A DNA stretch of 60,332 bases, the filler included, from Asterionella formosa (lineage: Eukaryota): assembly GCA_002256025.1 (NCBI GenBank). It is 9 parts of 9 records of this genome, joined end to end, with 100 filler letters (N's around TTAATTAATTAA, not from the genome) between each part and the next. Parts side by side here need not be neighbours in the genome. Positions count along the whole stretch, not along the records: positions 26,885 to 33,498 come from NKIB01012657.1; 8 more parts are not named here. The stretch is one strand, 5' to 3'. How positions within the stretch are numbered: position 1 is the stretch's first letter; the number at the start of each line of letters is the position of its first letter. The notes beneath the pieces were generated by a model. It was not told the DNA's origin, searched no databases, and saw only the letters and a list, made by a program, of their open reading frames with translations. A program made the translations under genes and the position numbers. Shown piece after piece: positions 13,351 to 60,332 of the stretch.

Positions 13351-14384
13351 NNNNNNNNNNNNNNNNNNNNNNNNNNNNNNNNNNNNNNNNNNNNTTAATT
13401 AATTAANNNNNNNNNNNNNNNNNNNNNNNNNNNNNNNNNNNNNNNNNNNNAATGTTGATGCCCTGCCTATGGGCGTTTAGAGCGAGCCCTCGTCATTTTG
13501 CTTCAATAATAACATCCTCGGCGAGATGCACGTTTTAGAACTTTAGTACTCCGGCCACGATCTGTCTTATATTTCACTATTTCTTGTCCATCTTTCTATG
13601 CGGCTTTTCTTATAGGACTGAGCAAAAAAGAATGGGAGAACAAGGAAAGGGAATTGGTGAGGAATCTCATAAAATGAATGTATAACATATTCTGGTTTTG
13701 TATGTAATGTGATTCTAATCCAGGAATGCATTACAATGGACTATGTAGGCTGTCTTGACTGTACAATTTTTCTCACGTGCAATAAATGGAGTGTGTATTA
13801 TCTAGAAGTGACTCCTAGCAATGCGGGGCTGTGTGTTCAAGGCTACATACAGTATCGATGGTAGACTTTTAGACGGATGTCAGCATACTGAAGCGTACAA
13901 CCCAACTAGGTGCTGATTTCAATTATCTCAATCTGGTTACAAGCATGAAGGGCATGTCATATGATAGCTTGAATAGTTTTGTTTCAAATGTATATATGTG
14001 CATCTTTAATTAGCAGTTATCAGAAAGAAACCAGGCTAAATTTGTTTTTAGTCAATACTCAACTACTAATCAGTCCTGTTTCAGCAATCCCATTCCCATT
14101 TCTACAACTGGAAAACGGCTTGCAGAAACCGGTTCAGCAGTTGAGCAAATCCAGTACCGTTTTGGCAACTGGAGGAAATTCGGCATGATAAATCAGCTAA
14201 TTGCCAATGCATGGACAAAAGGGTCATTTTAAAATGTCAATAGACTCCTCTTGAAAATTTTCGGGTTCCAGTATCTATGTATACCTCTGCTATGTCGGCT
14301 CCTCCCTTAAAATAATAGAGTCGGAGTTAATATTTGCGAGGAATGTGGCAATAACTCCAATTTTGAAGGCCCTTGGCATGATTG

Positions 14385-16030
14385 CATCTGCACATAAAAA
14401 GTATCATGCAAATAGGATCAAGGGTATTGTATGCTAGCTAAGTGGTACAGGATTTTCATGTATATGATAATTTTTGGCTTAAAACTATGATCAAGGTATC
14501 CTGTACTAACTATGATGATTTATTAATATTTTACCAAACATGAAGTATAATGATAATAAAAACGTTATCATCACACAATGTATATCAACTGATTAACAAC
14601 ATTTCTCGTCATCAATATCATAAACCTTCTCATATTATTTTCACTTCTCGTGATCGCCAAATGTAAATTATTTCTACAACGCATCCTAAAATCTGCTAAA
14701 CTCTATGCTATCATGTGCATTGTTTCATTGTTTATCTATCCTAAACATGATCATAATTCTAATCACGAGCTTTGTTCAAAATAGATTGAAATAGATCGTA
14801 ATTTAACTATCAAATTTAGCAGTGCTATCTATGATTTTACAGGCCAGCAAACCAATGTTTCTCTCTCCAATTGGCTCAATGTATATTCTTCCTGTCTCGC
14901 CCTTTTCTTCCTAGTACATTCTGAATCTTGTACCATGCAGTGCTTAAGGTATATCGACTCTCTCCCTGTTGTAAGTGACACTCTGAACTCGCCGACTATT
15001 TCTTTGTTTGATTGTTTTTATTGTTCTATGCAGTTACAGTGGTAACAATGAGAAGGAATGACTTGTTAGCTAAACATGTTACACTGACACAACATCACGC
15101 CCTTCCATCGTATCCTCTTGCTTGCTTCACTTACCACAGCCAAATCAAAGCAAGTGATGTATAAGGCTGTAATAGTAAATTGTCAGTAAATTCTTGAATA
15201 AGTAAGCAAGTTTCAGGTATCCAATGCTGTCGAATAGAACTTACCGATTCATTTTCGTTAGCTTAACTTTGAGAGAAGGTAAACGTGGCGTATCCGCCAG
15301 TTATGTTCCATCAGGAGTGAATAGGTCCAACGACAAGAGCACTTACCAATTTTGTTTTGTTTTACATTGGTGCTCCCCAACAAGCGAAATGAGCTATTGA
15401 ATCAACTGAGAAGAAAGGAAACGTGCATTTAGTTCACAATTTGTTGTTGTCCACTCCCAACGATTGTCATCTATGTACCACATTGATGGCTTCATTACCT
15501 TAAACATACTTCATCCATAGAAGGCGCAATGTATCGAAGCCACAGAGTTTTTCGTTATTGCGTAAACTTTCCTTGTCATATGCTTCTACGATATTTCCTC
15601 TCAAGAAGCAGGCATTGTTTGTTAACATGACAGAACAATTTCAAATATATTTGCCATGTATATAGCTATAAAATTTGTAAATATATGAAGTGTCGAACAT
15701 TTAAACAATTCAAAGGCACTTTCAATATGGCACATCTGCTATTACCAATGATCATATTTGCATATAGATAATTCGAAAATATGCAATGCACCATATGTCC
15801 ATTTTTTTCCACAATTTCGTGTACCGGTGCTGTTTCTGAAATTTGTTTGCATTAATATCTTCTACGTCTGTTGGAACTAACTATTTAGACCATTCAATTG
15901 GTGTAAGTCACAACCCATTTGTATCATTATTTATATGCAAGGATTTTGGTAGCTGATTATTTAAGCCCCTTACTTGGCGGGAGCTCTTCATGTGTGCATC
16001 ATATGATCATAACATTCTATCATATATGCA
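14385..16030. repeat. Dispersed repeat R1, copy 2
   Basis: Homologous to ~6990-8630. Confidence 0.92.
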
Positions 16031-17005
16031 TCATGTGAGGGTCCTTTGATAAGTTTTAACCGCATCACCGCCAGCGCAGGAAGTGCGAGATTTGTAGGAG
16101 GGTTGGTGAGTCTTTTTGATTTTCTTCTTGGATGCTGGGGGATGGGGACTAGTCCAGGAATTTGGAGATTAAATTTTGCCCCTATCTCAGCCTTGGTAGT
16201 GTTCCAGGACAGAAGCATCGAATTTGGCAGGCTGGACCACAAAATTGCTAGTGAGTGTGTCTCATTCTGCAGTTGGAGGAGTGAAGGTTGGATTGATAAG
16301 CTGGTGCAGTGGTACTGGAGTCGACATCGAGATGAAGCTTCGATTGTGTGTGTATAATTTCTTCATTTGTTTGGCGTGCCCTCATGATGATAATTGATGC
16401 AATTACCTCCTGAGGTGTTGAATGGCAAGGGGCATAGCAAATCGGCAATGCTCAAACCACCAAGGGGGCATTGTGAAACTTTTCCCATGTGATTGAGATG
16501 TATGTGAATGTGAATTAGAGGAACATTCAGTTTTATGAGGGAACAAAATCTCAGCAAAGGGTTTACAGAATTGACATTTAGTAAGTTATCATGTAATGAG
16601 GGAACTGATTAGGTGCTACAACAAGGTGACTGTAGTATGTCATGCACCTCCCACACTTACGAGCCAGAATGGTGAACAATGGAGTAGATGATACAATTTT
16701 ATGATGGAGGTGGCAAAAATTTACATAGTGGCTGATTGCTCCATGAAAACCTTAACTTTGAACACTGTCACTGTGACCCTTCTTGAAAGACCTCAAAATA
16801 AGTCTTATGCAACCATTCGAGCTCATTTAATGTTGCCAATGCGCCTGTGGGTTGGCAAGAGCATTCACATCAAGGCGACCATGACCAGGTTGGGGTACAT
16901 TCATCCAATGGAGAGCATTGATGATACCAGGTTACCATTGTTGCTGCATGGACGTGTTTGAGGTATATAAATATAAAAATCAGTTCAATTTATATGGATT
17001 TGTAA

Positions 17006-20068: not shown

Positions 20069-20336
20069 NNNNNNNNNNNNNNNNNNNNNNNNNNNNNNNN
20101 NNNNNNNNNNNNTTAATTAATTAANNNNNNNNNNNNNNNNNNNNNNNNNNNNNNNNNNNNNNNNNNNNAGCCTGTGATGCAGGTGCACAAATGAGTCCAG
20201 CCTCCTCTTCAAGCCCTTGATTCCAAGACGATGAATCATATCCTTAAATCAGCAGCAGGAGTTGATGATGCGAACATTCGTGTGTGAAGTTGTGTGCACA
20301 TTCAGACAATCACAATATGTATTTTGACATGATTGA

Positions 20337-23300
20337 TGTTGGAGAAATTATTTTAGGAAAGAAAAATCCCGGCATGAATTGCCTACTACATATTGAATCG
20401 AATGAATCAAAAACGAATATGGTAGCAGAGAAAACTCGGAATTCGAAAACAATCTACATGACCAGTAAAACCTATAATTCTACTAAAACTCTTAAGAACG
20501 ATTACAATCAATTACTGCAACATTGTTGTTCATATCTACAGCCCATTTGGTCCCTGACGTGTCCTTACAGGATACAAGAAAGCAATAGAGGGCTTCGGGA
20601 CGCAATTTCAAAAGTTTCAGTAGAATTAGCCGGCCAGGAAGAGCCGTAATATTACAATCAACAACAGGTGGACTGTTGAGAGTGCGGAGACAAGATCTGA
20701 GGGTACCAGACCATCCAGAGTCTGAAGAATTCGCACAAGGCGCATCATGAGTGGCAAAGGAAAGTTTTCCAAGAAGGCTCAGGCCAAGGGCAAGTTTCTA
20801 GCCAAGGGAGGGAGCAATACTAATGCTTCTCAAACCATCAAGAAGTCAGTTAATGACTATAACTAGTACTACCTCAGATCAGCAAAGCAGGCATCTGATT
20901 ATGAGACTACTACTGAGTGCCTCATCAACTACATCAAGAAAGTGTTTGACTATGGCAGTGACATAGGAATGGTGCTAAAGTTGGTAGAACAAATTATCAC
21001 ATCAGCATGGAAGCCAAGAATGCAAGTGAGCATTGCAACAACAGAAGAAGATCGTGCTGCAGAGAATCGGCAATATGAGATCAAGTTTAAGGCAGATGAT
21101 GACACCTACAGTAAAAGGGTACAGGCCTACGAAAATAATAATACCAAGGCATTTGCATTGCTCTGGGAAAGATGCAACAAAGCCATGAAGAACAAGATCA
21201 AAGCAAGATCCAATTACAATAGGATCGAAAATAACCCAATAACATTGCTTATGGCAATTAAAGAACATGCATTGAATTTTCAAGAGAATTGATATTCAAT
21301 GCCAATCATTTTAGATGCAATGAGAACGCTTTTACATACAAAGCAAAAAGGAGAAAGTCTACAAGACTACACCAAGAGGTTTTGGGTGGCATGAGATGTG
21401 CTCAAGTCACACATTGGAGGACCCATTATACTCACCAAGTTTGGTGAAGCCATGAATAGGTACAACAAGACAGTCATCAAGCAACGAGATAAATTTTGTG
21501 AACAAGCTTTCAGTCAATTTATAGCCTATTTATACCTGAATAATGCTGATAAGGCCAAACATGGATCAATTATGACCGGGCTGAACACTCAACAGTCACT
21601 CAGCAATAATCAATACCCAAAGAGTATCACCAAATCCAATAATGTTCTCAGTAACCACAGGTTCGACATAACAAATAAGCGCAACAGTCACAAAAAACCA
21701 GGAGATCACAATAAAGACAGGGAACAAAAGGATGCAGAGAAGGATGATGAAGATGTGAACTTATCGTTTGCACAGTTAGAAGGAAAATGTTACTGCTGTG
21801 GAAGAGCAGGTCACAAATCTCCTTCGTGCTGAGACAAGAACAAACCCAAAGAGGAATGGGCTAGCAACAGGGCACAAAGCCATGCACAGGCACAGGCTAA
21901 TACATCTGACATGAGTACAGTTACCTCTGTTAATTCCAACAACCCGCCGTCATCACAAGCTTCACAACAAGCAAACGCCAATCAATTTGGATGGACGGGA
22001 GCTCATATGAAATTACAATTTTACCAAGCATCTGAGATGCGTGACTGGATACTATTGGATAATCAATCAAGTGTCACAGTCTTTTGCAACCCAAAAATGG
22101 TTGATAACATTCGAATGTCAACCAACGGAAGCATGCACCTGGCCACAAATGGTGGATCCATGGTAACTACTATGAAGGCTGATCTTCCAGAATGGGGAGA
22201 AGTATGGTTTAATGAAAAGGCAATCACAAACATCTTCAGTTATGCCGAAATGGCAGATAGGTACAGAATTACCTACAACTCCAAGAAAGAAGATGCATTC
22301 ATTGTTCATTTGCCTGACAAAACAGTTCGATTTGAAAGAATTGGGATGAACTTATATCTTTTCAAGCCAACTACAAGAATTAAAGCGGAGAATGCTCAAA
22401 TGTTAAATACACTTGAAGAAAACAAAACATTTTACACTGAACGTCAATTTCAGAGAGCTAAGCAAGCTCGTGATCTATTTCATGCCTTGGGTACACCATC
22501 AATTAACGATTTCAAGGCAATAATTCGTATGAATACGATCAACAATAATCCAGTGACTACCGATGATATCAAAATTGCAGAGAAAATTTTTGGACCTGAC
22601 ATCGGAACACAAAAAGGCAAGACAACTCGTTGCAAGCCGCTGCCAGTCGTGAACAACTACATCGAGATTCCTAAGGAGCTCATCCAAGCTCAACGCGAAG
22701 TGATTCTTTGCATGGATGGAATGAAAGTGAATGGACAATCATTTCTCACAACAATTTCTCGAAACATTATGTATAGGACAGCGCAATGGGTCAAGAATCA
22801 GACAGCTGAAGTCTATCGAGATGCTTTGATTCAAGTATTCCGTGTTTATAATACCGGAGGATTTAAAATTACAACAATCCACTGTGACAACGAGTTTCGA
22901 CCTTTGATGGAACAAATTTCCAATGAATTTCAAGTCACTATGAACTACGAAAACCCAAAAGAACATGTTCCCGAAGCGGAGCGAAATAATTGAGTGATTA
23001 AAGAACACGTGCGCGCAGCTTATCATCGATTACCTTTCAAAAATTTGCCACGACTGATGATTAAGATTCTAGTAGTGACAGAATCTGCAAAGAAACTGAA
23101 TTTCTTTCCGGCAAAGAACGGGATATCCCCGTATTACAGTCCTCGTATGATTCTACGTCAACGAAACCTAGACTATGCTCGACATTGCCAGTATACATTT
23201 GGCACTTATGTCCAAGCACATGAAGAACCTGTGTTTTAAATCACTAATGCACCTCGCAGCCTAGATTGCATTTTTCTACGCTACAATGACAATGTGCAAG

Positions 23301-25934
23301 GAGGTCATGATTTGTTACACCTACCTACAAATTCATTGATCACTAGATGAACAATTACTCCTCTACCACTTACCCCAGCAATCATGAATCAAGTACATGC
23401 TCTTGCTGTGCAGGAGAATATGCCAGACGATCTCAAGATATCTAATCGAACGGAACAACTATTTTATGATAGTGCTTGGATTGCAGGAGTGGATTATGAT
23501 AATGAAGCATTTGAAGATGCACAAGATGAAGATTATGAAGATCAAGATGCTAGTGACAACGAAAGCAATGATGAAATTCTCGGAGAAGAAGACTATGATG
23601 AAATGACTCCGGATGAAATATATGAAGCAGAACAGCTCGAATTAAACGACAATACTCAAGAGGATGACCCTGAACCTGACGAGGGCAACAATGAGAATAA
23701 TATTGAAATGAATGCAGATGATATCCAAGATGAGGATGAAGAACCAGCAAATGAAACTGAAAATGAAGAGGCAATGTTAGAAGTCAATCCAAGTACTGAG
23801 GATGACACAGACCCAAATGTTAGAACTACAAGGTCTGGAAGAGTCTCAAGACCACCATCAAAACTAACTATGGTCCAAAATCATTTGCATACCCAAGCAC
23901 ACTGTCGAGAAGAATACACGACTGATAATGCGAAAGTGATCGCAATGACAATGTGTTATATGAATGAGATGTGTATCGATAAAGAAGCATTTCACTTTGT
24001 TCAGTCATACAGCTTAAGAAAAGGCCTCAAGAAATTTGGCCAGAAAGGAAGAGATGCTGCGTATAAAGAAATGAAACAACTACATGATAGAGTTGTATTT
24101 GAACAGATTAGGATTGAAGACCTAACAGAGATCGAAAAGCGACGCGCAATGGAAAGTCAAATTGTTTTGGTTGAAAAGAGAGACAAGAGTATTAAAGGCA
24201 GAGCTTGTGCCAATGGCAGTTCGCAACCACGTGAATGAATGGAAAGAGATGAAGCAGCTAGTCCTATTACCATGACGGGATCTGTTATGATAACAGCAAA
24301 AATTGATGCGAAGCAAATCGCGATGTTATGACAGCAGATATACCCAATGCATTTGTGCAATTGGTTATCGACGAGAAAGAAAAAGGGGAACGAATCATTA
24401 TGAGGATTGAGTGTTCACTTGTCAATATGTTGACAGAACTCAGCCCCAAGACTCATGAAAAATATGTTGTTTATGAAGGAATCAACAACAATGTCCTATA
24501 CATTAGGATGATCAAGGCATTATATGGCATGTTACAGTCATCATTGTTTTATTACAGGAAGGATATTGAGTCAATTGGTTTCAAGGTCAATCCATATGAT
24601 CCATGCGTTGCAAATCGCATTGTTAATGGCAAACAGCACACAGTTACTTGGCACGTAGACGATTTTAAATTAAGTCACTTGGACAGCAAAGTGAATGATC
24701 AATTTTTGGAATGGCTCAAAAAGAAATACGCTTCTGACAAAATTGGTGAAAAGCAAGGTCATGTGTGGAAAGAAGAATGATTATTTGGCGATGACACTAG
24801 ATTACTCTCTTCCAGGAGTGTTGAGGGTGGATATGACTAAATTTGTGAAATCAATGATTAATGATTTTCCAGAGAATCTTGAAAGTGTTGGAAAATTCCC
24901 ATGGACAGATAAATTGTTCACAGTGCGTTGATACGAAGTTAATGAAGCTTGAATATGAAAAAGCAAAAATATTTCATACTTTTGTTATGAAAGGAATGTT
25001 CCTATGTAAGCAAGGAGGACAGGACATTCAACTAGGAATTGCATTTCTGACAACCCAAACTACTGAACCAAATGAAGTTGATTGGGCAAAATTAGTCAAG
25101 ATCATGAATTTCTTGAAAGCAACTCAGAATGAGGTTGCATCAATGAGTGCTGATGAAACTCAGAGCATTAAATGGTATGTTGATGTGACGTTTGCTGTAC
25201 ACAAAGATTTAAAAGTCTCTCAGGAGCTACGTTGTCACTTGGAAATGGAATTAATTGTTCTATGTCTATGTAACAGAAAGTGAACATTAGATGTTCGGCT
25301 GAAGCAGAATTGGTTGGTGTCGATGACATTGTATCAAAAGTGTTGTGGACGAAATTATTTATTGAAGCACAAGGACACAAGGTGACTACAAATGTCATTT
25401 ACCATGTCAACACTAGCGCAATGAAGCTAGAAGAAAATGGAAAAGCAAGTTCAGGAAAACGCACGCGACATTTCAACATCAAGTATTTTTTTACATTACT
25501 GATCTTATTGAAAGAAAGGAAGTAAAAATAAAGTACTATACAATGGATGCAATGTTAGCAGACTACATGACGAAACCACTGGTTGGAACGAAATTTATTC
25601 ATTTTCATCAGCAAATTATGAATTCAAAGTGAGCATCCGTGTCCAGCAGGAGTGTGTTGGAGAAATTATTTTAGGAAAGAAAAATCCCAGTATGAATTGC
25701 CTACTTCATATTGAATCGAATTAATCAAAAAAGAATTTGGTACCAGAGAAAACTCAGAATTCGAAAACAATCTGCATCACCAGTAAAACCCATAATTCTA
25801 CAAAAACTCTTAGTAACCACGATTACAATCGATTACTGCAACATCGTTGTTCATATCTCAAGCGTATTTGGTCCCTGACATGTCCTTACAGGATACAAGA
25901 AAGCAATAGAGGGCTTCAGGATGCAATTTCAACA
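20337..25934 (+). mobile_element. Full-length but decayed Ty1/copia LTR retrotransposon (CoDi-like)
   Basis: LTRs at 20337-20613 and 25655-25934 (TG start, 3' LTR ends CA), 5-bp TSD ATTGA on both sides, purine-rich PPT before 25655. Gag CCHC knuckle (CYCCGRAGHKSPSC), protease LLDNQS, integrase (MDG...CDNEF...EAERNN), RT (ADIPNAF, KALYG, WHVDD) and RNase H in copia order. Confidence 0.96.
20747..25632 (+). pseudogene. copia gag-pol polyprotein, disrupted
   Basis: Many in-frame stops and frameshifts split it into the ORFs at 20942, 21398, 21911, 22994, 23384, 24328, 24695, 24861 and 25280. Confidence 0.92.
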
Positions 25935-26563
25935 ATTGAAGGATGAGTGAATCTAAATTTAAATAAATGAGGATATGGTTTACCTATGTAGGCTACCGGT
26001 ACCGGTAATTCTTGTATATGTACATAACAAATGGCTGTTTACTCCGAGGACACGGTAAACAGCTATTTTGTCCAAAAAAGGTTGATCTGTTGACACTTTC
26101 ACGTACGGTATATCGGTATGTATTGATCATACCTGTACAAATGAATTTTCAGTGTCGCTCGTATACACATAGCTAGAGAAGCAAGCGCTACGAGGTACCA
26201 GGTACATGCTCAGCTACTGATGGATCGTTTCAGATTTGTCAACTAAGATAGCTATGTGGAGAAATTCGTCACAAAACGTGTTATTCGATGTACCGTATAG
26301 AGGTTCAAAGCAGTTTTTAGGTGGTACCAGGTGAGCAATCCTGCACATCGATACAGATATATATAGAGTCAGGGTTATGTCAAATATATCAGAATTCAAT
26401 AATGAGAGAATTCGACTAACACCCATTCTATACTTTGATGTCAGTTCAGGAAATGAGTTATACATAAGGATTAATTAATAAGCTCATATATCCAACAAAT
26501 ACTACTACTTCTAGTTAGATACTTCACTTTGAATTCAAAAAGAGTCCAATTAGAAAAAAAAAC

Positions 26564-26784: not shown

Positions 26785-26884
26785 NNNNNNNNNNNNNNNN
26801 NNNNNNNNNNNNNNNNNNNNNNNNNNNNTTAATTAATTAANNNNNNNNNNNNNNNNNNNNNNNNNNNNNNNNNNNNNNNNNNNN

Positions 26885-27827
26885 AAGCCACGGCGGTTCA
26901 ATAGTGCAGTTGAATTTGCTGCGATTCGCCTTGTGTACAATCAGCTTCGTGCTGGTGATTGCGCTTGTTCAGTCATGTCGCTTGCTGCCAAGCTGCGGCG
27001 CTTGTCTGGACAAGATGTTAGCTTGACTGCCATGTAGCAGTGTGTAGCTCGTTGGTGCGCTTCGCAAAACATTGTATATTGTTGTATCACCCACACAGCA
27101 AAAAAAAAGATGTACTGAGTGTCATGCAAGAGTGGTATCTCTAGTATATTAACATGCAGTTTGATTCTTGAAGTGTCACATCATTTTCCTAGTATCGTAA
27201 ATATAGATGAAACAAACATTTATTTTGATATGGCGGGCGGGCTTACCCTAGCTGATGGAGGTGCCAACAATCAGCTTACGCACAAATGGCAGCAGCATTC
27301 GTTGCACAGTGCTGTTGGGTTTTCAATGTCTAAAGAGAAGCTTGTGCTCCTCTTGTTTTTTGAGAAATTAACAATTAAAAGTTTGATTATCCCCCACAGA
27401 TTGCTTATTGTTGTCAGACAAAAGCATGGGTTCAGAAAGTCGGTTTTTTCATTGTAGACTTGCAACATTCGGAAGCCATGGAAAATCAGCCAGTCATGGC
27501 ACCCAGCCATCCTACATTCGGATGGATGCGTTTCAGATGCATGTGATGGCAACAAGCCTCAATGAAATTAAGGATTGTGGAACTAATGTGGACTTCATTT
27601 GTGGAGGATGCACCTCCAAACTACAGGTGTTGGAAATCGGAGTAAATAAACCCTTCAAGGGCTATGTTAGGGATGCTCATGAGAACTGGATAGTCGCAAA
27701 TCCTCATGGCACAAAGGTGAAGCGTCGAGATGTTGCTCAGTGGGTTTGGACAGCTTGGGAGAGGTTTTCACAATCAACAATTTTGAACACTTGGAATTCA
27801 GTTGATTACATCGTAAGTAACGACTGA
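26885..27827 (+). pseudogene. pogo-like (DDE_1) transposase remnant
   Basis: IVNIDETNIYFDM, MDAFQMH and GGCTSKLQVLEIGVNKPFKGYVR are pogo/CENP-B-type DDD motifs; frameshifted. Confidence 0.85.
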
Positions 27828-28057
27828 AGGCCATATATTGGTCAAAAATTATACTGTCACTATTAATGTAACTTCACACTCTGTTTATGCATGCTCTTCT
27901 GTTCCAGTATTGATTTGTAGATGTCTCCTGGCCTTTAATATCCTCTATCAAGCAGAATGAAGCAATTCCGGAATTCCTCTTGCTTTTTTTCTCATCAGAG
28001 AATTTTTGTGAGCGCAGCAACCTCAAGGGCTAGAACAATGAATTATATGGTAGTTGT

Positions 28058-29580
28058 TGCTGAAGGCAATACACGCCTGAGGTGGTCTCTTGCCTGCGAG
28101 TATGCATGTGTTCAAGGCTGGGTGGCGCAAGTAGGTTGACCGTACGAGTGGCTCCCCTGGCGCTGCGATAAGGTCACCCTACAAGTGCCATCCCAGCCAA
28201 GTACACATGTATAAAAGAAGGCAAGTAGCCGCCAAGAAGGGTATTGTTGAGGCAATTCCCGCTCTAGCTATCATTGCGTCATTCACTTACCTACTGCCCA
28301 CAAATAAAGCATAAATGTCAATATTAGTCTACTATTGCCCATCATACAAAGCACATTTCGTTTATTTCCTACTATCTTCACCTCAAAAATTGCCAAAGGT
28401 CCGATATTGCCCATTTTGGGATTGCCGAAATCGGCATGGGGTCTACTTAAGGAAACCATTTTATATACTATACATGCTCAATTTCGTCCTCACAATTATA
28501 ATTCTCACTCTATCCTACCTGCCGTTGCTCAATTTGGGCTTGCAACAGGAACTTTCGACTTTCTTGTTATGCGCCCATCATCTGCTGCGTGTTACGCTTG
28601 TTAGAGCGGACTGGTTAGTACAACAGTCAAACACTGAATGTGATTGTAGATACGATTTTCGAGTTTCCTATTTGATTGCTTCCATGGTCTGTTTTGATTG
28701 CTTCTATCGTTCCGCTCTGTCGTTTTGATTCAATTGTAACTATCCACACAAGGGCATATATATGTATCAATGACTACTCTTTGAAGATGTGGTATCGTGC
28801 CGTTGTTGATCTTATTTCTTGATTTGTATAGTTGTTGACCATGATGTAAATGTTGCTGCCAAGCAATGTTTTTCTTGTACCAATGCGCTTTGCTACCTCT
28901 ACTATGAGTTTGTATCACAAGCTACATAAATACTCAGCTAGAGGGAGTCGATAGTGCTGGAGCAGCCTGGCGATCACGCTTGCTTAGAATGGAATGATCA
29001 GGGTTGCTTGTTTGGTGGGAGGAATGCCTGTGGCGGAAAGACTACTACTGGTGTCAGGCTACTACAGCGATGTGAATGGTTGCAGCAACGAGATCATCTA
29101 TGCTACATAACGATGCAGGTATAAATGGGGTTCAGCTTTTTTCTTCTTATTTCGGTCTTCGATTGTGTGGTGATGGGAAGTCAATGTTACCTGTGTAAGT
29201 ACTACAATGTCACAATGCATACTATGTTTCCATTGAAACTCCTATTTCTTACTTCATTTCTAACCCAAAAACCAATTTTTTCTATTTCTTCATTTGATGC
29301 TACTTATTAAATCGCATTTCATACTTTGGTTGTTTCAAACATCATGTTCAACAATTTTCATTGATGATGCATGTTACAATCATTCTTGTGTGTTTTACGC
29401 TTGTTGTACCATCTCTATGCATATTACCATTATTCTGGTTGTCATGCTAAAATCGGCAATTTTATTGCCGGAAAAATTCGATGTGCCCCATATTGCCATT
29501 AAATAAAAATTACTGAAGAAATTACTTAGTACTTAAAAGTACCCGAATAGCAAGACAATAGCTGGAGCGGGAATTGCTGA
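28058..29580 (+). mobile_element. Non-coding hairpin element (family H), complete copy A, 1523 bp
   Basis: Direct repeat (T)TGCTGA at 28057-28063 and 29574-29580. 197-nt hairpin at 28058-28254. Inverted repeat ATTCCCGCTC(T/C)AGCTAT at 28255 and, reverse-complemented, ending at 29574. Homologous to the copies at 39582, 52960 and 60021. Confidence 0.85.
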
Positions 29581-30033
29581 CATAATGATGGACAATGACT
29601 ACCAGTATGCCTTTACTGTTGCAAGGTCAAGAGTCCAGGGTATAACAGTATATAATATTAAACATACAAAGTATATACAGACTCTATACTGATAGTTGGG
29701 TTTATGGTTGCTACATTCTAAGAATTCAACATGGAATCCTTCACATAGGAAGCTTTAGAAAAAAGTTACCAAAACATAATGTGTTTAGGTAACTTATTGG
29801 GATATGAGCACGGAATCCCCTAAAGCAAACGCATTTCCATTGGGTTTTTCATTCCCATTAGCATTGCTTTTTTGGGTTACCAAAGCCAAAACACTGTTTG
29901 GTTGGCATTTTGGTCCACAGTTAGCAACAGCCTTAACAGTGAAGCTGAGATACTAATATATGTTAAACAAATTTCAAAAATGAGCACTGTTTGCAAAACC
30001 TGACAAGCAAGGTTCTATGTAGCTCAATCGATG

Positions 30034-31236
30034 TTACCAAAAGTTCAAGAGATGGTCTTGCCCGTTTGGTGGATCTAACATCTGAAACGTGCTCCGATCT
30101 GGTTGGCGCATAAAAAATACCCACCAGCTCACATTTGTATAGGCTGTTCCAATAACATATTTGGCTGACACCAGGCCAAGTAACTCAACAAAAAACTTTT
30201 CATAATGAGCATCTGTCTGTTCTATAGTCCAGTCTTTCATATCCCTGAGGGTGAACCCATGAAGATCTGACGAATCCTTGGTTGTAACGTCACATTCACT
30301 CACAAATGTCCATGCTGGTCGGAGCGAGCGGAGCTCGCCAAGAGCGCTGCAGTCATCGGTTGCCACAAAGATAGTTGGTACTCTACCATCAAATATAGTA
30401 CCAATTGCTTTCTGCGCTTCGTCAATGTACATGCTCATCTCGAGATAAATTATTCCTTCAGTTGTTTTATCGCCTCGACGAACTGACATTGCCATGTATT
30501 CATCCGATGACGGCAAATGCGTCTCTAATCCCGAACAAGCCCGCTGTCGGAACCGCGGAAGGAATCTCCACATGCGCTTCATCATGGTACGCTTCAAGTA
30601 ATGACCTTCAACTTGTTGATAGAAGAGATTATCAATGGAAGATGTGCTGTTTGCTGGGCGACGTACACGTAAATCATCCCAGAGTGCAACAAAATTTTGA
30701 TACTCATACGACCCATCATTGAAGGCTTGTTTCACCTTTGGGTGGTCCTTTTGAAGGCCAATGGGCTCAAAGTATCTGTTGACAATAGAAGGGATAGGGT
30801 CTTCACCCTGATCTTTATTTCGTAATCGCAGATGCGAGTTTGATTCATCCAAGTAGAAGCACCTGTTTTGTTCAAAGGATAGAATCGCTCCCAGCAATAC
30901 TCCCTTGAATGCATTCGTCATACCTCCAATGAGGCGAATCACATTCAGTGGTTTATTTGGATCACATCGCTCATACGGTAGGCGGCCAAGGTCTGTTTCA
31001 ACGCACCAATCTCTGGCTCCCTCGGGGAGTGCAAAAGGAAAAGGGTTGAGGGGATCATAATCGGAAATGGGAGCTACTTTTGATTCTTCTGTTCGTGGGT
31101 CCAATCTTCTGGTCGTCAACCTCTGACGAACCAGAAATGCGTCTGAAAGGCCTGATGGCTGTTTATTTACTGTCCATGCCACAAAGCCAAGTAGAGCGAG
31201 GCCGGGAATCGAAGTAAGTAATCCAAGCATAGACAT
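30034..31236 (-). CDS. Type II membrane fucosyltransferase-like glycosyltransferase (GT23/GT11 fold)
   Basis: 400-aa intact ORF with an N-terminal TM and GDP-fucose motifs SVRRGDK, IFVATDD and IGTAYTNVS. Confidence 0.8.
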   Translation of the reverse strand: MSMLGLLTSIPGLALLGFVAWTVNKQPSGLSDAFLVRQRLTTRRLDPRTEESKVAPISDYDPLNPFPFALPEGARDWCVETDLGRLPYERCDPNKPLNVIRLIGGMTNAFKGVLLGAILSFEQNRCFYLDESNSHLRLRNKDQGEDPIPSIVNRYFEPIGLQKDHPKVKQAFNDGSYEYQNFVALWDDLRVRRPANSTSSIDNLFYQQVEGHYLKRTMMKRMWRFLPRFRQRACSGLETHLPSSDEYMAMSVRRGDKTTEGIIYLEMSMYIDEAQKAIGTIFDGRVPTIFVATDDCSALGELRSLRPAWTFVSECDVTTKDSSDLHGFTLRDMKDWTIEQTDAHYEKFFVELLGLVSAKYVIGTAYTNVSWWVFFMRQPDRSTFQMLDPPNGQDHLLNFW

Positions 31237-33248: not shown

Positions 33249-33599
33249 TAAGCAGCCAGTTCATAGTGGTCTAAGGGTCGTTCTTATCATTTTCGATTTG
33301 GTATCATTTTTTTTGAAAAAGTATCATGTAATGGCTACTCGATTTAAACCGAAAAAATCCATTCTCCACATAAATAAAAATGAAATTGTATCACCAAAAA
33401 GTATCACGAAAATTCAACGGTTACGGGCTGGCTACAAACATGTGCTTTTCTTTCCTGACTACCGGTACATAATGATGCCAAACCAGTCCTCAAACCATNN
33501 NNNNNNNNNNNNNNNNNNNNNNNNNNNNNNNNNNNNNNNNNNTTAATTAATTAANNNNNNNNNNNNNNNNNNNNNNNNNNNNNNNNNNNNNNNNNNNNA

Positions 33600-37131: not shown

Positions 37132-38459
37132 GATAAAAGTATGATTTGATTAGAAGAACTGTGCTGTAAGAAAAGGCAAAAAAAACAGTCAAAGCAAGAA
37201 ATGTCGCTCGATCGGTTCTTCGGTAGTTGTAATGCGATCCTGAACTGGGAATGCAAGCAAAAGAACAGAAGTTAATCGGCATGCATTCTTTGTTGCGTTT
37301 ATGGCGAAGGCGTCCAACAGATGTTCTTATCACCGGTGCTTAGCCTTGGATTGATGGCTTGTGATTGGTCAGCAGGTCGACTTTTTTGTTGCTGGGTTCG
37401 CATCAAGTGACCACTGCCTCGCGTAAAATAGTGGTAATAATTAGTATTGTATACGAAGGAAACAGGGATGTGCACGAAGCGCGCATTTAAACCACAGAAA
37501 AAACAGGAAAGATTGGAATACAGGCAGGCTGAGGAAAAATTGAGCAACCATGCACGGGAGCCAATTAAAAAACCTAGCAAAAATTGAAGATGAAGTTCGA
37601 AAGCAAGCAAGCAAGCAACATGTAAACCATAGAAGAAGAAGGTCATGGAAGAGTCGATCTGCCAGAGAACAACCATGCAGAGGGTTCAAGGCAGAAAGCT
37701 CACAATTCTGTGAATTAGCTTTCAACAAAATCAAATCGTTGATCACCAAGCCTTGCAAATTTATAGTTTTTAGATAAAAATTTACCCACCCGAACTCCCA
37801 CCCACAGCTAATGTGCAAAAATGACTGCAGCTATGGGAAACCCAGAGGAAAGGAACTACCCAAGCTACTTAGAACCAAATTCAAAAACCACCTACAAGTC
37901 TAGATTAGCTGGTGCAACAAATCAACCTCAACAAAGAATCAAAATAGTAACAAAGGACCATTCGCTGAAAAGGCAATCGAATGAGTCGGTAATTGAGTCG
38001 AAGTAACTTCGATATTCTCCTCCTATGATATATACAAAAAGGATATGATATATCATAATAGAATAATAGCGGGTTCTTTCCAGCTCATTAGGCTGATTTC
38101 AGTCTCTCTTTGAGACTCGATATGAAAACCTTGATGTCACTTTCCTTTAACTTTAGCTACGATGTGGGGTGATGCTCCCTCTGTTCTGGAAGGTCCGGTA
38201 AAACACAGTTTTTACTTAAGAAAAGATTAAGCTAAATATCTCGATTACCAGACCTTCCTGGTGAATAAAAGGGCCATACTGGTGTTCAACTATAGTTGCA
38301 ACAATTCTTTTGATCGGCCTGCTCGATCCACTTCCTTAAATAAGCCCTCAAGAAGCAATATAAATTTTATATGCAAGACGATGCTGGCAATGGGTGTGTC
38401 CATTAGATTAGTATATTTAGGTGCTGTGTATAATGCTAAATATTTATACATGTGGATCG

Positions 38460-39587
38460 TTTTTGGTATTGCCGAAATTGGCAAAGGATTTACTTAAGGA
38501 AACCATTCTATATACACTGTAGATTTAATTATCATGTATCTAGTATTCACCAATTTGTTGTCATATAGCTACATCGATTTTTTTGTTTTCTAAATATGTG
38601 GGCGGAAATGCAGCTTTGACACAGGAGCCAATCATTGACGATCATGCCCAATCTGAAGCAAGATGGGTTCATTGATTACGCCAATAACCAGCGATTCGTC
38701 TTCAAACAGATGTGGTTGTTGAATTGCTTGTCGTCTGGTGGATTCATGTCATCGCATCATACCTACTACTTTATTGTGGTGGCACCCAAAATTGCTGTTT
38801 CTAATTCAATTGATCTCCAAAAGTCTCATCATTCATTTTCAGATTATGGTTACTGGCAATTCGGATGAATGCTCTGCTTCGATAATATCATTTATTGGAC
38901 TATTGGGGAAAAATTCATGGGTTGCTCTGGTAAGGAGTCAATTTCGAGCCATATTTGTCACTTCGTTTTTTCAGAAGAATTGGTCAGTTATTATTCAAAA
39001 ATTATTCATTTAGTATGGTTTCTACGTGAAAAGCAGATATGATGTCAATGCTTTACTAGTGTGCTTTTTAGCTGCTCTAAAATATATATTTGCTCTGTTT
39101 TCATTCACTGTTATTATAATTCTAACATCTGGCTGATTATTCTACAATTCACAACATGAACTAGATGCTGTTGAATCTCTCAAACATCAGCCATGATTTC
39201 TAACCCAAAACAATTCTATATAATTCTCACATGAGGCTACTTTTTACATAGCATATCATACTTTGGTTGCTCCAAACATCATGTTCAATTTTTATTGATG
39301 TTATATGTTGCTCTCATTCTCGTATGTTATGATGCTCATTCTACCACGCAAATATGATGTATTCCCTGTATGTCATATATGCTAACTACCCTTGCTGTCA
39401 TGCTAAAATCTGCAATTTTAAGAACGCCGAAAAAATTGATGTGCCCCATATTGTCCCTAAGAAATCGAAATTCCAAACAAATTACCGGTACTCACCGGAG
39501 GTATGAAAAGCCAAATATTACATACCCAAGTACCGGTACCACTCCAAGAGCAAGACGGTATGTGGCTACTACGGGAACAATTGCTGA
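38460..39587 (+). mobile_element. Family H element, older 5'-degraded copy, head-to-tail with copy B
   Basis: 38460-38550 matches the family left-internal sequence (ATTGCCGAAAT..TACTTAAGGAAACCATT). 39200-39460 matches 29260-29500. Ends gcaagac...cgggaacaatTGCTGA. Confidence 0.75.
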
Positions 39588-40215
39588 AGGCAAGTAGCCG
39601 CCGAGAAGGGTATTGTTGAGGCAATTCCCGCTCTAGCTATCGTCGCGTCATTCGCTTACCTACTGCCCACAAATTTACCATAAATGTCAATTTTAGCCTA
39701 CTATTGCCCATCATATAAAATATATTTTGTAGATTTCCTATGTTCACCTCGAAAATTGCCAAAGGTCCGATATTGCCCATCATTAAAATATATTCTTTAT
39801 ATTTCATATGTTCGCATGTTGGCAAGACAACAGACACCAATTGCCCCTCGGTTTTCCAGCCCAGGGATTGCCGAAATCGGCAAGGGGTCTACTTAAGGAA
39901 ACCATTTTATATACTATACAGATTCTAATAATTTATATCTAGAATTCACCTCGTTTTTGTTCGTCTCCTGAAAAGTGGACTCCGGCAATTCACCTTTCAC
40001 CATGCCAATCGTCGTCCATCATGACCGGTTTGAAGCGAAATCAGTTCCGCGATCCGCAATGACGCCAGTAGCGATTCTTTGCCTAACGGATGCGGTTGAT
40101 TGTTGGATTGCTTGTCTTCTCGAGGTATTCATGTAGTCGCATCGTCCATATTTCGTCGGACGCACGATGATATCGATACATCTGATGTTGGAGGCAAGTT
40201 TTTGCTCCGGTCATG
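39582..40215 (+). mobile_element. Family H element copy B; hairpin core deleted, truncated by the contig end
   Basis: TGCTGAAGGCAA is joined directly to GTAGCCGCCGAG (155-nt deletion between two AGGCAA repeats). The remainder is near-identical to 53121-53629. Confidence 0.88.
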
Positions 40216-40315
40216 NNNNNNNNNNNNNNNNNNNNNNNNNNNNNNNNNNNNNNNNNNNNTTAATTAATTAANNNNNNNNNNNNNNNNNNNNNNNNNNNNN
40301 NNNNNNNNNNNNNNN

Positions 40316-42097: not shown

Positions 42098-44775
42098 TAA
42101 ATTTTTTAATGTAAATAGGTGTTCTACTGCAGATGATGAGAAAGACAAGTATTGAAATGCTTGATTAGTTTTTTTCATCATGATTGCTATTTGTAACTTG
42201 TTTTGAGATAAGTTCTTATCACCAAAATGTTTGCCAGTTCCTTTTGTTCCCTTGTTCTTTATGATGATATCAAAGTAGGATTAGAATAAATGTAGATGGT
42301 TTAAAATCAAAGATTGAAACAATATCATTAAAAGATTTACTGGTATAATCCTTTCATTTTTGGCGCGCCAACAATAAAAGTCAGTTGTGTTATTCATGAA
42401 GAATTATAAATAGATCATTCATTTACGCTTCTTCCTTCGAAGATGTAATCCAAGTATTTAACCATATAGTACAAGTAATAAAGTGTTAGATCATGATCAA
42501 ATACCTACCGGAATTGATCATTCATTCAAATATCTTCAATAGCGGTGACGTACTGCCTGTATTCTCTGTATCATGAAAGTACCGGTATACTTTGAAGGTA
42601 TGTAAAATAGGTACCAAAAATACTTGTCTTACTCCGTACCAGGGATATGATTAGCTACCGGAAGTACGTTCGAGGTTCTTCCAAGAAGTCTTGAAAAGTT
42701 TATCATATCATTCATACTTAAAAAAAAGGGTATAGACATAAAGAAATGTAAATAAAACTTAATTTTGTTTTCGACATTGATAATATTTCTCTTCCCTACA
42801 TGCAGAAGTGAGAAGGAGGATTGATACTCTCCTGTCACCTATCAATCAACCATGAAGCAAAGCAGAGGTACCGGTAATTTATGTGCTCATTTGCTGCTCA
42901 TATGTCTATTGTAGCGCAAATTTTTATGATTGTTTTGCTTCTCATATGTTTATCAAAAGAAACCTGGCTTGTTAATGATTCTTTCGTTTCATGTTTGTGT
43001 ATAAAAAAGTGCTTCTGTACAGAAGTCACGACGTCGTCTTGGTGCACATGCGTGTAAAGAAACGCTATGTGATTGTTTCGTTGCACATCTGTGGAGATGG
43101 TTTACACATTTCAAAACTTTCGATAAAATTGTTCTTATCTCCTACAGGAAAATTATACAAGAAGGTTAGAGAATTTGAGTTTCCTCCCATTCTTAATGGT
43201 GGAATTTTGAATGTAACATCAATAATTTCGCTGACTCTTTCATTTCATCTTGAAGAAAAACATGTCAAAGTAAATGATACATGTCAAAGCAAAATATGTT
43301 AGGTTGAAAGCTGGAATAGCATTTGATAAAAGCACTCCAAACATTAGTGCAAAAGATCAATTGTCTTGATTGAACGATTTCTATCTTTAGATTGTAGATT
43401 GACTAATTGATGCAATATAAGAAACTGTTTGACATGATGACAATATGTATAAAATCATGCATGTATATATGTTTATGATCTGACACGCACGCAAAAAGTT
43501 ATTGATCAATATCTTTTTATGTATGATCAATAAAAAACCGTCATACTGCGATAATTTTGGGTCGATAATAGAGTGAAATGTTAGGCCTACCACTTTTTTC
43601 ATTCACAGACGTTGCTATTATTTATATGATTATCTATTCCAATGATCTCCTCATCCTTAACAGAATCTTCAATATTGACCATTTCATCAAGAAACGTAAA
43701 TACCGTAACTCAATGACCTCGTATATTCATTCTTCTTTCTTTCGCTCCTTAGAGTCTTTGAGCAGTTCAACAGCTACTGCAATAGTATGATCAACATACT
43801 GCACTGCCTCAATTTTCTTGTTCGCAATTCTCCTTGAAATATATCCAACTCTGCATTTTTGACGTTCTGGATGGAGTTCCTCACAGTCCATCGTTTCCCG
43901 GATTGCATCCTCGAGTTATTGTAGGACTTCATCCAGCACTGTACACCAATGCAAGAAGACCATTGATTCAACTTTCCCAGTTGATTTTCAAAAATGATGA
44001 TGGGCACAGCTGCGCACATTATTCTTTGCCATCAGCCAATGACCTGGCCATCAGGAATGGGCGCGTCGTCAATTCAACATGCATTTTGACAATAACTGTA
44101 ATGATGATGGTGATGGATAAAATTATATAAGAAAAATCAAGGCATTAGCATCGCTTGATATATACATGTACCAATGTTTATATGTATGGTAATTGGTTTC
44201 GATACATTTATTTAAATGCTACATGTTTAATTACAAAAACGGAGTTTATGTTCATGTCTATGTAACTAATAATAACGCATTTTTTCCGAGTAAGGTGACC
44301 TTCACGTAGAAAATTGGTATGTAGTCTACATAATCCGTGCTAAAATAAGCTGCTTGGCAATGAGGGTTCCGATAATCGAGGATGCAACTATTATCGGACA
44401 GAGGGAGTACCATGTAGCAGTCAACAAAGCAAGGAGAGGGTGGACGAGTCGCGCTTTATTTGTCCCAGGGACTGGATCAGCGGTCCCAGATGCTTGCTGC
44501 AGATGCTCCTTCTGAGAACTGATACCGGTACTTGTGGTTTCGTTTCTTTTGCTCTTCTCTGTTTTCAGATATTTCACCTTTCTTAAGGATTCGCACAAGT
44601 AACTGGGCCAATCACGTCGTTTCCCACAAGGGTTGGCACTGCAGGTTTCTTCAGATCTTTGCCATTCCCTTCTGACATTTCTTGGCCTTGCTTGCGCTTG
44701 ATGTAACAAATATTTACTGTTCTCCGAAGTAGCAGGCACCACGTACCTGGTACCTGCTACCACCATTCGAGAGTA

Positions 44776-46027
44776 CCACCTAAAAACTGAGAGTCATCCT
44801 TTAAAACAGGGTAATCACACGTTTTGGGACGAATATTAGAGATACGTTGATTCTGTTTCAGACAAACTTGTTTCTTGGCATGCATGGAGGGGCAATATCC
44901 ATAAATGTAAGGTGAGCTTTCGTGGCCGTTCTTGCGATAAATAGGTCGAAAGGTAGCTGTCGCCAAAATTTGGGTCAAATCAGATTTCCCTACTGAGCCG
45001 GCAATGCATTTTTGAAACTTAGAGCACATTTCAGCTAATTTAATTTTTTAGTGATGCTTTGTTATTTATTTATTGTCTTTTGTTTATATACTTATTGGCT
45101 TCGATTGATCATCAATGTCACATGGAGTGATGTTGCTCCGCCCTGTTCACCATGTATAAATACGATCAGTTTAGTGTACTATTTTAAATCACGGTGGCTT
45201 GTGATGATGAACAAACAGCACTCGGTCGTGCCTATGAGCGCACGAAGAATCTACGAAGAAAATGAATATGTACCCACTGATGGCAGAAGCTTAACGGTGT
45301 ATTATTGCTATGCAACTGAAAAAATCATATACTTTGCCGGCATTATCATGACAACCATTGAAACAAATGAAAATTGTTGATTTTCTAACAGGAAGCATTG
45401 TTATTATTAGTCCTTTGAGTAGAATAGATTATTTCGCAAGTATATTATGAAACGAATTTCATTGTAGCTTGTATATTCGTCAAGTCGAATATGTGAATTC
45501 GGAAAACTCACGCACTAATGATGATTTCTCGATCCCTCTTTGTCACATCAAGATGCGATGCTTTCAAACAGATGCGCCGCTCTATGATATACTATAATTT
45601 ACACGAGATCAAATTCAAAAACAATTATTGATTTATAATTCAATATTTAACTGCTTAAAATTGTCTCTCGTGGCTTTGTCAATCAGCAACACCGTCATGA
45701 CGTTTACACAGCTTCATAGCCAGCAAGTATTGTATGACCTACATAATTTATGTATGAAGATTTTCAAACAACAAGTGATGATTTAAAAACCAATATATTA
45801 ATAGTCGTCCTTATTTGGCAAAACAATGACATGAGAAACTTTTTTATATCAAGAAATATTGACTTCACCCTACCGGTAGTTATAATTATATAATTAGATC
45901 TAGTGGTACCTGAGAGAACGAGCTGCAATAACCTTCGTACTTGCTTCAACATTACCATCCAATCGGACTGAAATAATTTGAGTCGTAACATGGGATTAAA
46001 TAAGGATGACTCTCAGTTTTTAGGTGG
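44776..46027. mobile_element. Non-autonomous TIR element (Tc1/mariner-type MITE), 1252 bp
   Basis: Perfect 26-bp TIR CCACCTAAAAACTGAGAGTCATCCTT at 44776-44801 and 46002-46027, TA duplication in a GTAC context. A solo matching end CAGTTTTTAGGTGG-TAC lies at 26311. Confidence 0.9.
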
Positions 46028-52959: not shown

Positions 52960-53629
52960 TGCTGAAGGCAATACACGCCCGAGGTGGTCTCTTGCCTGCG
53001 AGTATACATGTGTTCGAGGCTGGGTGGCGCGAGTAGGTTGACTGCACGAGTGGCGCCCCCGGCGCTGCGAGAAGGTCACCCTACGAGTGCCATCCCAGTC
53101 GAGTACACATGTATACGAGAAGGCAAGTAGCCGCCGAGAAGGGAATTGTTGAGGCAATTCCCGCTCTAGCTATCGTCGCGTCATTCGCTTACCTACTGCC
53201 CACAAATTTAGCATAAATGTCAATTTTAGCCTACTATTGCCCATCATATAAAATATATTTTGAATATTTCCTATCTTCACCTCGAAAATTGCCAAAGGTC
53301 CGATATTGCCCATCATTAAAATATATTTTGTATATTTCATATGTTCGCATTTTGGCAAGACAACAGACACCAATTGCCCCTCGGTTTTCCAGTCCTGGGA
53401 TTGCCGAAATCGGCAAGGGGTCTACTTAAGGAAACCATTTTATATACTATACAGATTCTAATAATTTATATCTAGAATTCACCTCGTTTTTGTTCGTCTC
53501 CTGAAAAGTCGACTCCGGCAATTCACCTTTCACCATGCCAATCGTCGTCCATCATGACCGGTTTGAAGCGAAATCAGTTCCGCGATGACGCCAGTAGCGA
53601 TTCTTTGCCTAACGGATGCGGTTGATTGT
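52960..53629 (+). mobile_element. Family H element copy C; best-preserved hairpin, truncated by the contig end
   Basis: TGCTGA start, hairpin at 52960-53156 with ten intact CGAG motifs, then ATTCCCGCTCTAGCTAT and the left-end body. Confidence 0.9.
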
Positions 53630-60020: not shown

Positions 60021-60332
60021 TGCTGAAGGCAAGACGCGGCCGAGGTGCGTGGTCTCATCCTATCGAGTAAATACGTACATCTGTTCGAGGCTGGGTGGCG
60101 CGAGTAGGTTGACCGTACGAGTCGCGCCAAAGCCCTGCGGGAAGGTCACCCTACGAGTGCCAACCCAGCCAAGTACACATGTAAATGAGAAGGCAAGTCC
60201 CGCTCCAGCTATCGTCTTGCCATTCGGGTACTTCTAAGTAATTTTTAGGCTCTAAGTAATTTCTTAAGTAATTTTTATTTAAGGGCAATATGGGGCACAT
60301 CGAATTTTTCGGCAATAAAATTGCCGATTTTA
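60021..60332 (+). mobile_element. Family H element copy D: hairpin joined to the opposite (right) end of the body
   Basis: TGCTGAAGGCAA start and a diverged CGAG hairpin to ~60196. 60197-60332 is the reverse-complement homolog of ~29447-29574. Confidence 0.85.

Follow-up and report, generated by a model that had tools for sequence, protein, structure and literature searches.

To our knowledge, few eukaryotic transposons insert at a short fixed site by means other than a DDE transposase, the ones we are aware of being Helitron-like elements, Replitrons, and Cryptons, and the cis-acting sites of these three groups are, as far as we know, poorly defined. Elements of the Helitron2/Helentron type (HLE2; HINE/DINE-1) carry short inverted repeats of which one is terminal and the other subterminal (PMC3627910, PMC4067079, PMC5148889, PMC11417382), and a stem-loop takes up the stretch from the subterminal repeat to the nearby end, so that joining the ends puts the two repeats around the stem-loop; their non-autonomous copies are numerous, and head-to-tail tandems and joined ends have been reported. 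Replitrons (Y1 Rep proteins of the HUH type; algae, protists, and non-seed plants) have 6-bp direct repeats, a palindrome near one end, short non-autonomous derivatives, and, in most families, no regular target duplication (PMC10288648). Cryptons, among them the CryptonS elements of oomycetes and a diatom, have 4-6-bp terminal repeats that are taken as the crossover between circle and target, with no other duplication (PMC3212892). Family H, a repeat family found in a 60,332-nucleotide stretch of DNA from Asterionella formosa (GenBank assembly GCA_002256025.1; hereafter the window), resembles the three groups in these respects, its algal host being a further likeness to Replitrons; it unites defining features of all of them and satisfies none fully. 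We tentatively take it, at slightly under an even chance, to be a non-autonomous DNA transposon, present in very many copies in a eukaryotic freshwater alga, that is most likely moved by nicking and joining of the HUH type.

We located the ends of family H by the word TGCTGAAGGCAA, which occurs exactly four times in the window, always on the + strand, at 28058, 39582, 52960, and 60021 (about 0.38 occurrences expected; four reached in 0 of 100 shuffles). A first-pass annotation, made from the sequence alone, had described four ends that begin with this word in differing upstream DNA; all four starts hold, and the DNA upstream of 39582 turned out to be the right end of a further family member, which we call X. 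Copy A, which starts at 28058, finishes on TGCTGA as had been read (...GCGGGAATTGCTGA at 29580), and copies B, C, and D end at contig ends 310-670 nt past their left ends. Assemblers typically break contigs at abundant repeats. Outside its two TGCTGA cores, copy A has GTTGT as its left flank and CATAA as its right flank, which share no sequence and show no other duplication. The letter adjoining the core on the outside is T, A, T, and G on the left (copies A, C, and D and a metagenome locus, L069, whose flanks are mutually unrelated) and C and A on the right (copy A and one contig of sequencing run X1). TGCTGA has the same orientation relative to the element in every copy, and all four right ends seen (A, X, a second metagenome locus, L015, and the X1 contig) finish on it. 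The proposal that TGCTGA bounds the element is thereby upheld, the hexamer being constant and oriented, with no variable duplication outside it. The 20-nt inverted repeats are placed asymmetrically, with the right repeat 3 nt from the end and the left repeat 194 nt inward of the left TGCTGA; the left repeat had been placed inside the hairpin and away from the terminus, of which the second part is correct, whereas the repeat lies just inboard of the foot of the hairpin and not in it. Copy A has no long open reading frame (ORF), its longest stop-to-stop frame having 137 aa and no family match, and the view of family H as non-autonomous and non-coding therefore stands.

The same boundaries are visible in public sequencing runs. 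We placed Logan contigs from four runs of three studies (X1, X2, X5, and X6) on 27300-30300 at >=85% likeness. Summed depth inside 28058-29580 was 0.47-2.6 million in X1 against ~870-1,040 in the adjoining single-copy contigs, and the ratio of element to flank was >100 in all four runs; summed depth is not copy number, and supports only the statement that the family is very abundant. Among the 46,642 X1 contigs, 4,040 were >=99% alike, 13,659 were 95-99% alike, 23,454 were 90-95% alike, and 5,489 were <90% alike. The match stopped at 28057 in 39 X1 and 20 X2 contigs and at 28058 in 30 and 25, respectively, and the consensus of the loose ends past these positions agreed at just 0.37-0.40, which means that the flanks are unrelated and that the left boundary is fixed at (T)TGCTGA in dozens of copies. 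No cluster of loose ends appeared at ~28061-28064 among the best-supported rows. One X1 contig ran to 29580, continued for 27 other letters, and resumed at 28057; it therefore holds two copies, each with its own TGCTGA, and gives 29580 as the right boundary of another copy. Further loose ends at 28417 and 28474 indicate that the type represented by copies B and C is the dominant subfamily. Copy A was bridged at both junctions in all four runs.

Joined ends occur in assembled DNA. It had been predicted that joining the ends at a single TGCTGA would place both inverted repeats beside the hairpin and lengthen its stem, and two such junctions were found. In L015, read in the orientation of copy A, the right end ...ATAGCTGTAGCGGGAAT is followed by TGCTGA and by AGGCAATACACGCC..., the full hairpin, the inner repeat, and a B/C-type interior, the right and left ends sharing a single TGCTGA. 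One strand of this natural junction folds into a continuous rod of ~240 nt (-76.6 kcal/mol, z = -9.8, 0 of 200 shuffles as good), with pairing between the right and inner repeats. In the window, the right end of X, a single TGCTGA, and the left end of copy B follow one another in the same way. X and B belong to diverged subfamilies (67-75% identity), so the X-B junction is not a concatemer of one copy, and its sequence fits an event in which one element entered the TGCTGA at the end of a copy already in place. The loose-end consensus before 28057 in X1 finishes ...CGGGAA, which is right-end sequence, and this is a hint of further joined ends. The fixed core and the joined form are both real.

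The hairpin of copy A has a predicted folding energy of -53.5 kcal/mol (z = -6.1, 0 of 200 shuffles as good; a second hairpin fold, z = -6.25). We aligned seven copies (A, B, C, D, L015, L069, and a third metagenome locus, L070). At the inner boundary between hairpin and repeat, copies A and B have GGGTATTGTTGA-GGCAAT and copy C has GGGAATTGTTGA-GGCAAT; this boundary nearly repeats the end-to-end junction GGGAATTGCTGA-AGGCAAT, with the inner hexamer TGTTGA in 6/6 copies that keep the region (all those aligned except D). This degenerate inner junction was absent from the first-pass annotation, as were the likeness to Helitron2/Helentron elements and the discontinuity of the window. To judge from the sequence, the hairpin probably constitutes a distinct unit, palindromic and 187 bp long, placed head-to-tail with a 1.33-kb unit, each of which begins (A)GGCAAT and finishes GGG(A/T)AT. 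The outer left terminus GCAATACACGCC agrees with the inverted repeat GCAATTCCCGCT at 9/12 positions in direct reading. GGCAA/TTGCC words number 11 in copy A against 2.2 expected (11 reached in 0 of 2000 shuffles), a density of 7.2 per kb compared with 2.1 per kb over the remainder of the window, and are putative binding sites of one protein.

The two strands of the hairpin differ. In copy C (52980-53138) and in L015 (555-755), one strand carries ten CGAG and zero CTCG, and CGAG stands opposite CGAG five times, at mirror positions 21/176, 40/157, 56/141, 71/125, and 88/109, with a spacing of 15-19 nt. This placement could possibly give tandem G-A mismatches. In the predicted fold, two CGAG/CGAG sites form C:G, G-A, A-G, G:C loops, and one pairs TCGA with TCGA. 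The predicted fold is -49.2 kcal/mol on the + strand and -42.5 kcal/mol on the - strand, ~6.7 weaker. The CGAG positions are retained in copy D, which is 79% identical. Nothing relevant came up when the literature was searched for hairpins with tandem G-A mismatches in transposons or origins. Across the population, the palindrome is unstable: 39-113-nt deletions within 28098-28227, around the hairpin tip, are common among the Logan contigs, the hairpin is shortened in L069 and L070, and copy B retains the right arm only. On the repeat-terminal side, the predicted folds of the A, L015, and X right ends show no advantage over shuffled sequence (z = -0.95, -0.85, +0.82, and +0.19).

We propose that each family H unit spans one TGCTGA to the next and that the element would be copied or excised as a joined-end form, either circle or concatemer, with a single TGCTGA. 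In this form, the two inverted repeats and the hairpin would make up a split palindrome of ~240 nt (GGGAAT-TGCTGA-AGGCAAT...), and an enzyme acting in trans would nick and rejoin at TGCTGA and insert the element in one orientation at a target TGCTGA, the outcome being TGCTGA on either side with no further duplication. The hairpin unit and the 1.33-kb unit would travel as a single piece, because the core between them has decayed to TGTTGA. The enzyme would most likely be a nuclease of the HUH type (rolling-circle or single-strand). The footprint expected of a tyrosine recombinase is the same as that of an HUH nuclease; we infer the circle and the HUH class, and prefer the latter to the recombinase because the layout of repeats and stem-loop is, by analogy, that of the Helitron2/Helentron type, because the target would be short, asymmetric, and orientation-specific, because the hairpin differs between strands, and because nothing outside TGCTGA is conserved in the target. 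HUH transposons insert in one orientation at short targets, with hairpins read on single strands (PMC10288648), and Bao and Jurka suggested that rolling-circle replication stops at a point defined by the pairing between the two repeats (PMC3627910). DDE cut-and-paste is unlikely because the hexamer is non-palindromic and in fixed orientation and because the boundary lies 194 nt outside a good repeat. We regard family H as a non-DDE, site-specific element that is most likely HUH-driven, and we assign it to no named family.

Several observations weigh against an HUH-driven transposon that uses TGCTGA as its target. No empty site skipping 28058-29580 was present among the best-supported joints in the four runs, and BLAST of six flanks against the window and 120 metagenome loci returned no paralogous empty site; because no empty site was found, we infer TGCTGA as target mainly from the X-B junction. 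No free circle was seen, both single-core junctions being head-to-tail neighbors in assembled contigs, and the sample of right ends is small (n = 4). Because copy B and many contigs are without most of the hairpin, the hairpin may be dispensable, and compensatory change was present in 0/65 predicted pairs among four sequences, so that selection on structure is not demonstrated. None of the 57 window ORFs of >=110 aa matched a Rep, helicase, or recombinase at E <= 0.001, and a relaxed Pfam rescan of 19 of the window ORFs at E <= 0.5 likewise returned no Rep, helicase, or recombinase, the Pfam matches of interest being a weak RVT_2 and, outside the element, a pogo-like DDE_1 remnant. The likeness to HLE2 is also incomplete. 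HLE2 elements insert between T and T or after TTTT, a rule that family H does not follow at the flanking letters given above, in a small sample; family H is without the hairpin that Helitron2 has at the repeat-terminal end; and its stem-loop is ~10x longer than any described (~190 nt vs. roughly 5-20 bp), with the subterminal repeat 194 nt from the end instead of 20-60. Its constant 6-bp direct repeat at both ends is unlike HLE2 as far as the available descriptions go, and is a feature of Replitrons and Cryptons.

Elements of the IS200/IS605 group form a joined-end circular intermediate, and their cleavage needs neither duplication nor terminal inverted repeats. Family H resembles these elements (Y1 HUH, single-strand "peel and paste") in its subterminal hairpin and in orientation-specific insertion by a fixed motif (PMC10288648). 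IS200/IS605 elements are prokaryotic, with a 4-5-nt target, differing end motifs, and hairpins at both ends, whereas family H has one giant hairpin, an identical hexamer at both ends, and true inverted repeats, and we do not count it among them.

The option that had led the first-pass annotation was a tyrosine recombinase of the Crypton kind, by which a double-stranded circle with one TGCTGA as crossover would recombine with a chromosomal TGCTGA. The footprint fits this equally well, including the single-core junctions and the lack of any other duplication, and the likeness to Cryptons and Replitrons that had been noted agrees with the short terminal direct repeats published for both (PMC3212892, PMC10288648): the 4-6-bp terminal direct repeats of Cryptons (5-6 bp in CryptonS) are presumed recombination substrates, and Cryptons occur in stramenopiles including a diatom (PMC3212892). 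The junction of family H also has short inverted half-sites, ATTGC/GCAAT, around TGAAG. We rank the recombinase below the HUH nuclease, however, and regard it as unlikely, since the Crypton description, as far as available, gives no terminal inverted repeats and no known hairpin (PMC3212892), whereas family H has 20-nt repeats and a 190-nt hairpin, neither of which a double-strand recombinase needs. Moreover, the arms adjoining TGCTGA are not inverted repeats of one another, only the frequent preceding T is conserved beyond TGCTGA in four unrelated target flanks, and the scan of 57 window ORFs found no recombinase ORF. Somewhat more doubtful is a Replitron-type element to which both TGCTGA belong, with no need of a 6-bp target and with single-core junctions arising through replication of a circle or through recombination. 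Replitrons do have 6-bp direct terminal repeats and a right-end palindrome, and both repeats travel in de novo insertions (PMC10288648), and the X1 contig in which 27 nt separate two copies that each have a TGCTGA is consistent with this. Adjacent copies should then show two cores, whereas both junctions show one, the inner degenerate junction is likewise single-core, and the X-B junction joins diverged subfamilies and is thus not a replication concatemer. Replitron-1 carries both repeats along and requires only RG as target, whereas the single-core junctions of family H would point to one repeat per unit; and the available part of the Replitron description mentions neither terminal inverted repeats nor a long hairpin, both of which family H has, the repeats being of 20 nt (PMC10288648).

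The inverted repeats could instead belong to a nest of DDE elements, in which an inverted-repeat element of 1.33 kb, with TGA as a 3-bp duplication (PIF/Harbinger-like TNA), lies beside or inside a palindromic miniature element. TGA is present on both sides of the 1.33-kb unit and of the hairpin unit, both units start GGCAAT, the outer left terminus and the inverted repeat agree at 9/12 positions, the enrichment of GGCAA/TTGCC resembles subterminal transposase-binding sites, the body of copy D is inverted relative to the hairpin, and the pogo-like DDE_1 remnant adjoins copy A. This arrangement is nevertheless improbable: the TGC before the left TGA is constant in every copy despite unrelated DNA further upstream, symmetric DDE insertion would not yield a non-palindromic hexamer in a single orientation, the boundaries common to dozens of copies belong to the composite and not to the 1.33-kb unit alone, and the tips of the inverted repeats are without TA or a variable duplication. 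A PIF/Harbinger-like miniature inverted-repeat transposable element differs in the same way, the left boundary shared by family H copies lying 194 nt outside the repeat and the flanking hexamer being constant and in one orientation. Head-to-tail junctions and very high depth would also be expected of a tandem or satellite repeat or of a plasmid-like episomal circle with fragments assembled beside unrelated DNA, and the contigs do come from metagenome assemblies, with L070 probably a chimera with phage DNA. We think it very improbable that family H is no transposon in this sense, since boundaries that coincide to the nucleotide in dozens of contigs, and also in four with longer flanks, are not random repeat phase, the copies are very diverse (5,489 of the 46,642 X1 contigs <90% alike), copy A is CpG-decayed and old, and its insertion is bridged at both ends in four runs of three studies.

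A bolder reading would make family H an undescribed class of eukaryotic site-specific element that is not Helitron, Replitron, or Crypton, and taken jointly with its parts we consider it unlikely. Those parts are that the element would be a small circle whose sole cis-acting site is the ~240-nt split palindrome; that the palindrome would be cut asymmetrically at TGCTGA, 20 nt from its base; that regularly spaced, strand-specific CGAG/CGAG mismatches would mark the active strand; that modules bounded by TGYTGA would form chains, with the 187-bp hairpin as the minimal mobile or origin unit; and that the enzyme would come from a family so far unlinked to eukaryotic transposition. If the partner enzyme is new, family H would represent an additional class of site-specific integrating DNA in algae. 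Being abundant, with sharp ends, natural joined junctions, and a strand-asymmetric hairpin, family H suits the study of how strand, nick site, and target are chosen. It mixes features used to separate the Helitron-like, Replitron, and Crypton groups, and automatic annotation is affected, because tools that rely on T-T insertion, on CTRR ends, or on inverted repeats being absent would miss or misfile it.

Table 1 Positions of family H features and of the linkers in the window
Feature	Position	Strand	Remarks
Copy A	28058-29580	+	Only complete copy
Left TGCTGA core, copy A	28058..28063	+	T precedes at 28057
Hairpin unit, copy A	28064..28244	+	Begins AGGCAAT, finishes GGGTAT; rod ~28078-28234
Inner degenerate core TGTTGA, copy A	28245..28250	+	
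Inner (left) 20-nt inverted repeat GCAATTCCCGCTCTAGCTAT, copy A	28252..28271	+	Pairs with right repeat in natural junction
Non-coding body, copy A	28272..29557	+	Rich in GGCAA/TTGCC words, some as short palindromes
Right 20-nt inverted repeat, copy A	29558..29577	+	Final 3 nt overlap core
Right TGCTGA core, copy A	29575..29580	+	
Element X	38461..39587	+	Diverged family member without left ~300 nt; right end is TGCTGA
Head-to-tail junction X-B	39553..39593	+	X right end, single TGCTGA (39582-39587), copy B left end
Copy B	39582..40215	+	Cut at contig end; hairpin core deleted between two GAAGGCAA words
Copy C	52960..53629	+	Cut at contig end; least decayed hairpin, ten CGAG motifs mirror-placed
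Copy D	60021..60332	+	Cut at window end; TGCTGA, hairpin, inverted repeat, then inverted right-end-type sequence
N44-TTAATTAATTAA-N44 linkers	6631-6730, 13351-13450, 20069-20168, 26785-26884, 33499-33598, 40216-40315, 46924-47023, 53630-53729		

Over the 357 columns shared by copy A (28058-28414) and copy C (52960-53313), there are 31 differences, of which 22 are transitions and 12 are CpG -> TpG/CpA, and copy A has 12 CpG against 23 in copy C. Judged by these substitutions, copy A is an old, CpG-decayed copy, and the pattern suggests that old family H copies are cytosine-methylated and decaying. As a diverged family member, X is 67-87% identical to the family; it is collinear with the B-type interior at 66-67% identity and with the right end of A at 73%. 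The word GATGCTGGCAATGGG at 38379-38393, 70 nt upstream of the start of the X alignment, looks like a left terminus that has been shortened (TGCTG-GCAAT); it may be a chance match or the left end of X itself, lacking both hairpin and inverted repeat. The order of parts in copy D suggests that the body between the two inverted repeats is inverted or that the copy is a symmetric derivative; its contig stops before the other terminus. A 63-aa frame at the end of copy B was rejected as coding, since a 7-nt deletion interrupts it in C and a stop codon does so in L015.

The metagenome scan for the inverted repeat returned at least 120 loci; among the matches listed, 3 were relatives (L015, L069, and L070), each beginning TGCTGAAGGCAA, and 117 were chance matches. 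The flank of L069 is unrelated. In L070 (396-1008), the left end of family H is joined to phage DNA (tail fibre, phrog_4492, E = 1.7e-18; small protein, phrog_20370, E = 3.8e-11). The point of joining coincides exactly with a coding stretch in which the terminal word of family H also occurs, and coverage is 1.5; as the phage match spans the shared word, we rejected the join as a real insertion, took it to be probably an assembly chimera, and left its flank uncounted. A 25-mer scan of genome contigs and viral contigs returned 0 matches, and a 20-mer scan returned two contigs of bacterial metagenome-assembled genomes that share those 20 letters only, by chance, and 0 viral matches.

The window is made up of nine pieces of 6,603-6,630 bases each, separated by eight linkers ~6.7 kb apart, with piece lengths roughly descending along it; an additional gap of 283 N, apart from the linkers, lies at 9523-9805. 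We read the pieces as whole assembly contigs placed end to end, and distances between features are meaningful only within one piece. The DNA is eukaryotic; its ORFs include a mitochondrial carrier, a ubiquitin hydrolase, FBPase, the pogo-like DDE_1 remnant, and a weak match to a Copia-type reverse transcriptase. In a protein atlas, the FBPase ORF fell among clusters of both bacterial and eukaryotic origin and pointed to no single host lineage. Public runs that contain the stretch are labelled algae or freshwater, riverine, or lake metagenomes, and RNA is on record for 0 of 20 such runs. The pogo-like DDE_1 transposase remnant lies directly upstream of copy A (27119-27824, + strand; PF03184, E = 4.7e-07) and is not bounded by family H ends; summed depth over two of its parts (27502-27602 and 27704-27804) was ~100-300x that of single-copy contigs in the runs analyzed, which marks it as another abundant transposon.

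An Rfam scan of 27950-29700 at E <= 1, made with a ribozyme or retrozyme in mind, returned no known RNA family, and a scan of the whole window returned one tRNA only. Direct repeats of ~280 bp (20337-20616 and 25655-25937; 90-91% identity, 5.3 kb apart) enclose + strand ORFs whose matches to zinc-knuckle and RVT_2 are only weak, and the whole is probably a degenerate Copia-type long terminal repeat retrotransposon, judging by this layout. A repeat family with 83-95% identity is common to three contigs (7106-8651, 14485-16049, and 47068-47567). Inverted repeats of 53 nt that are 83% complementary and spaced 1.2 kb apart (44749-44801 and 46002-46054) may mark a separate inverted-repeat element, and a 52-bp unit is present in three tandem copies at 50030-50185.

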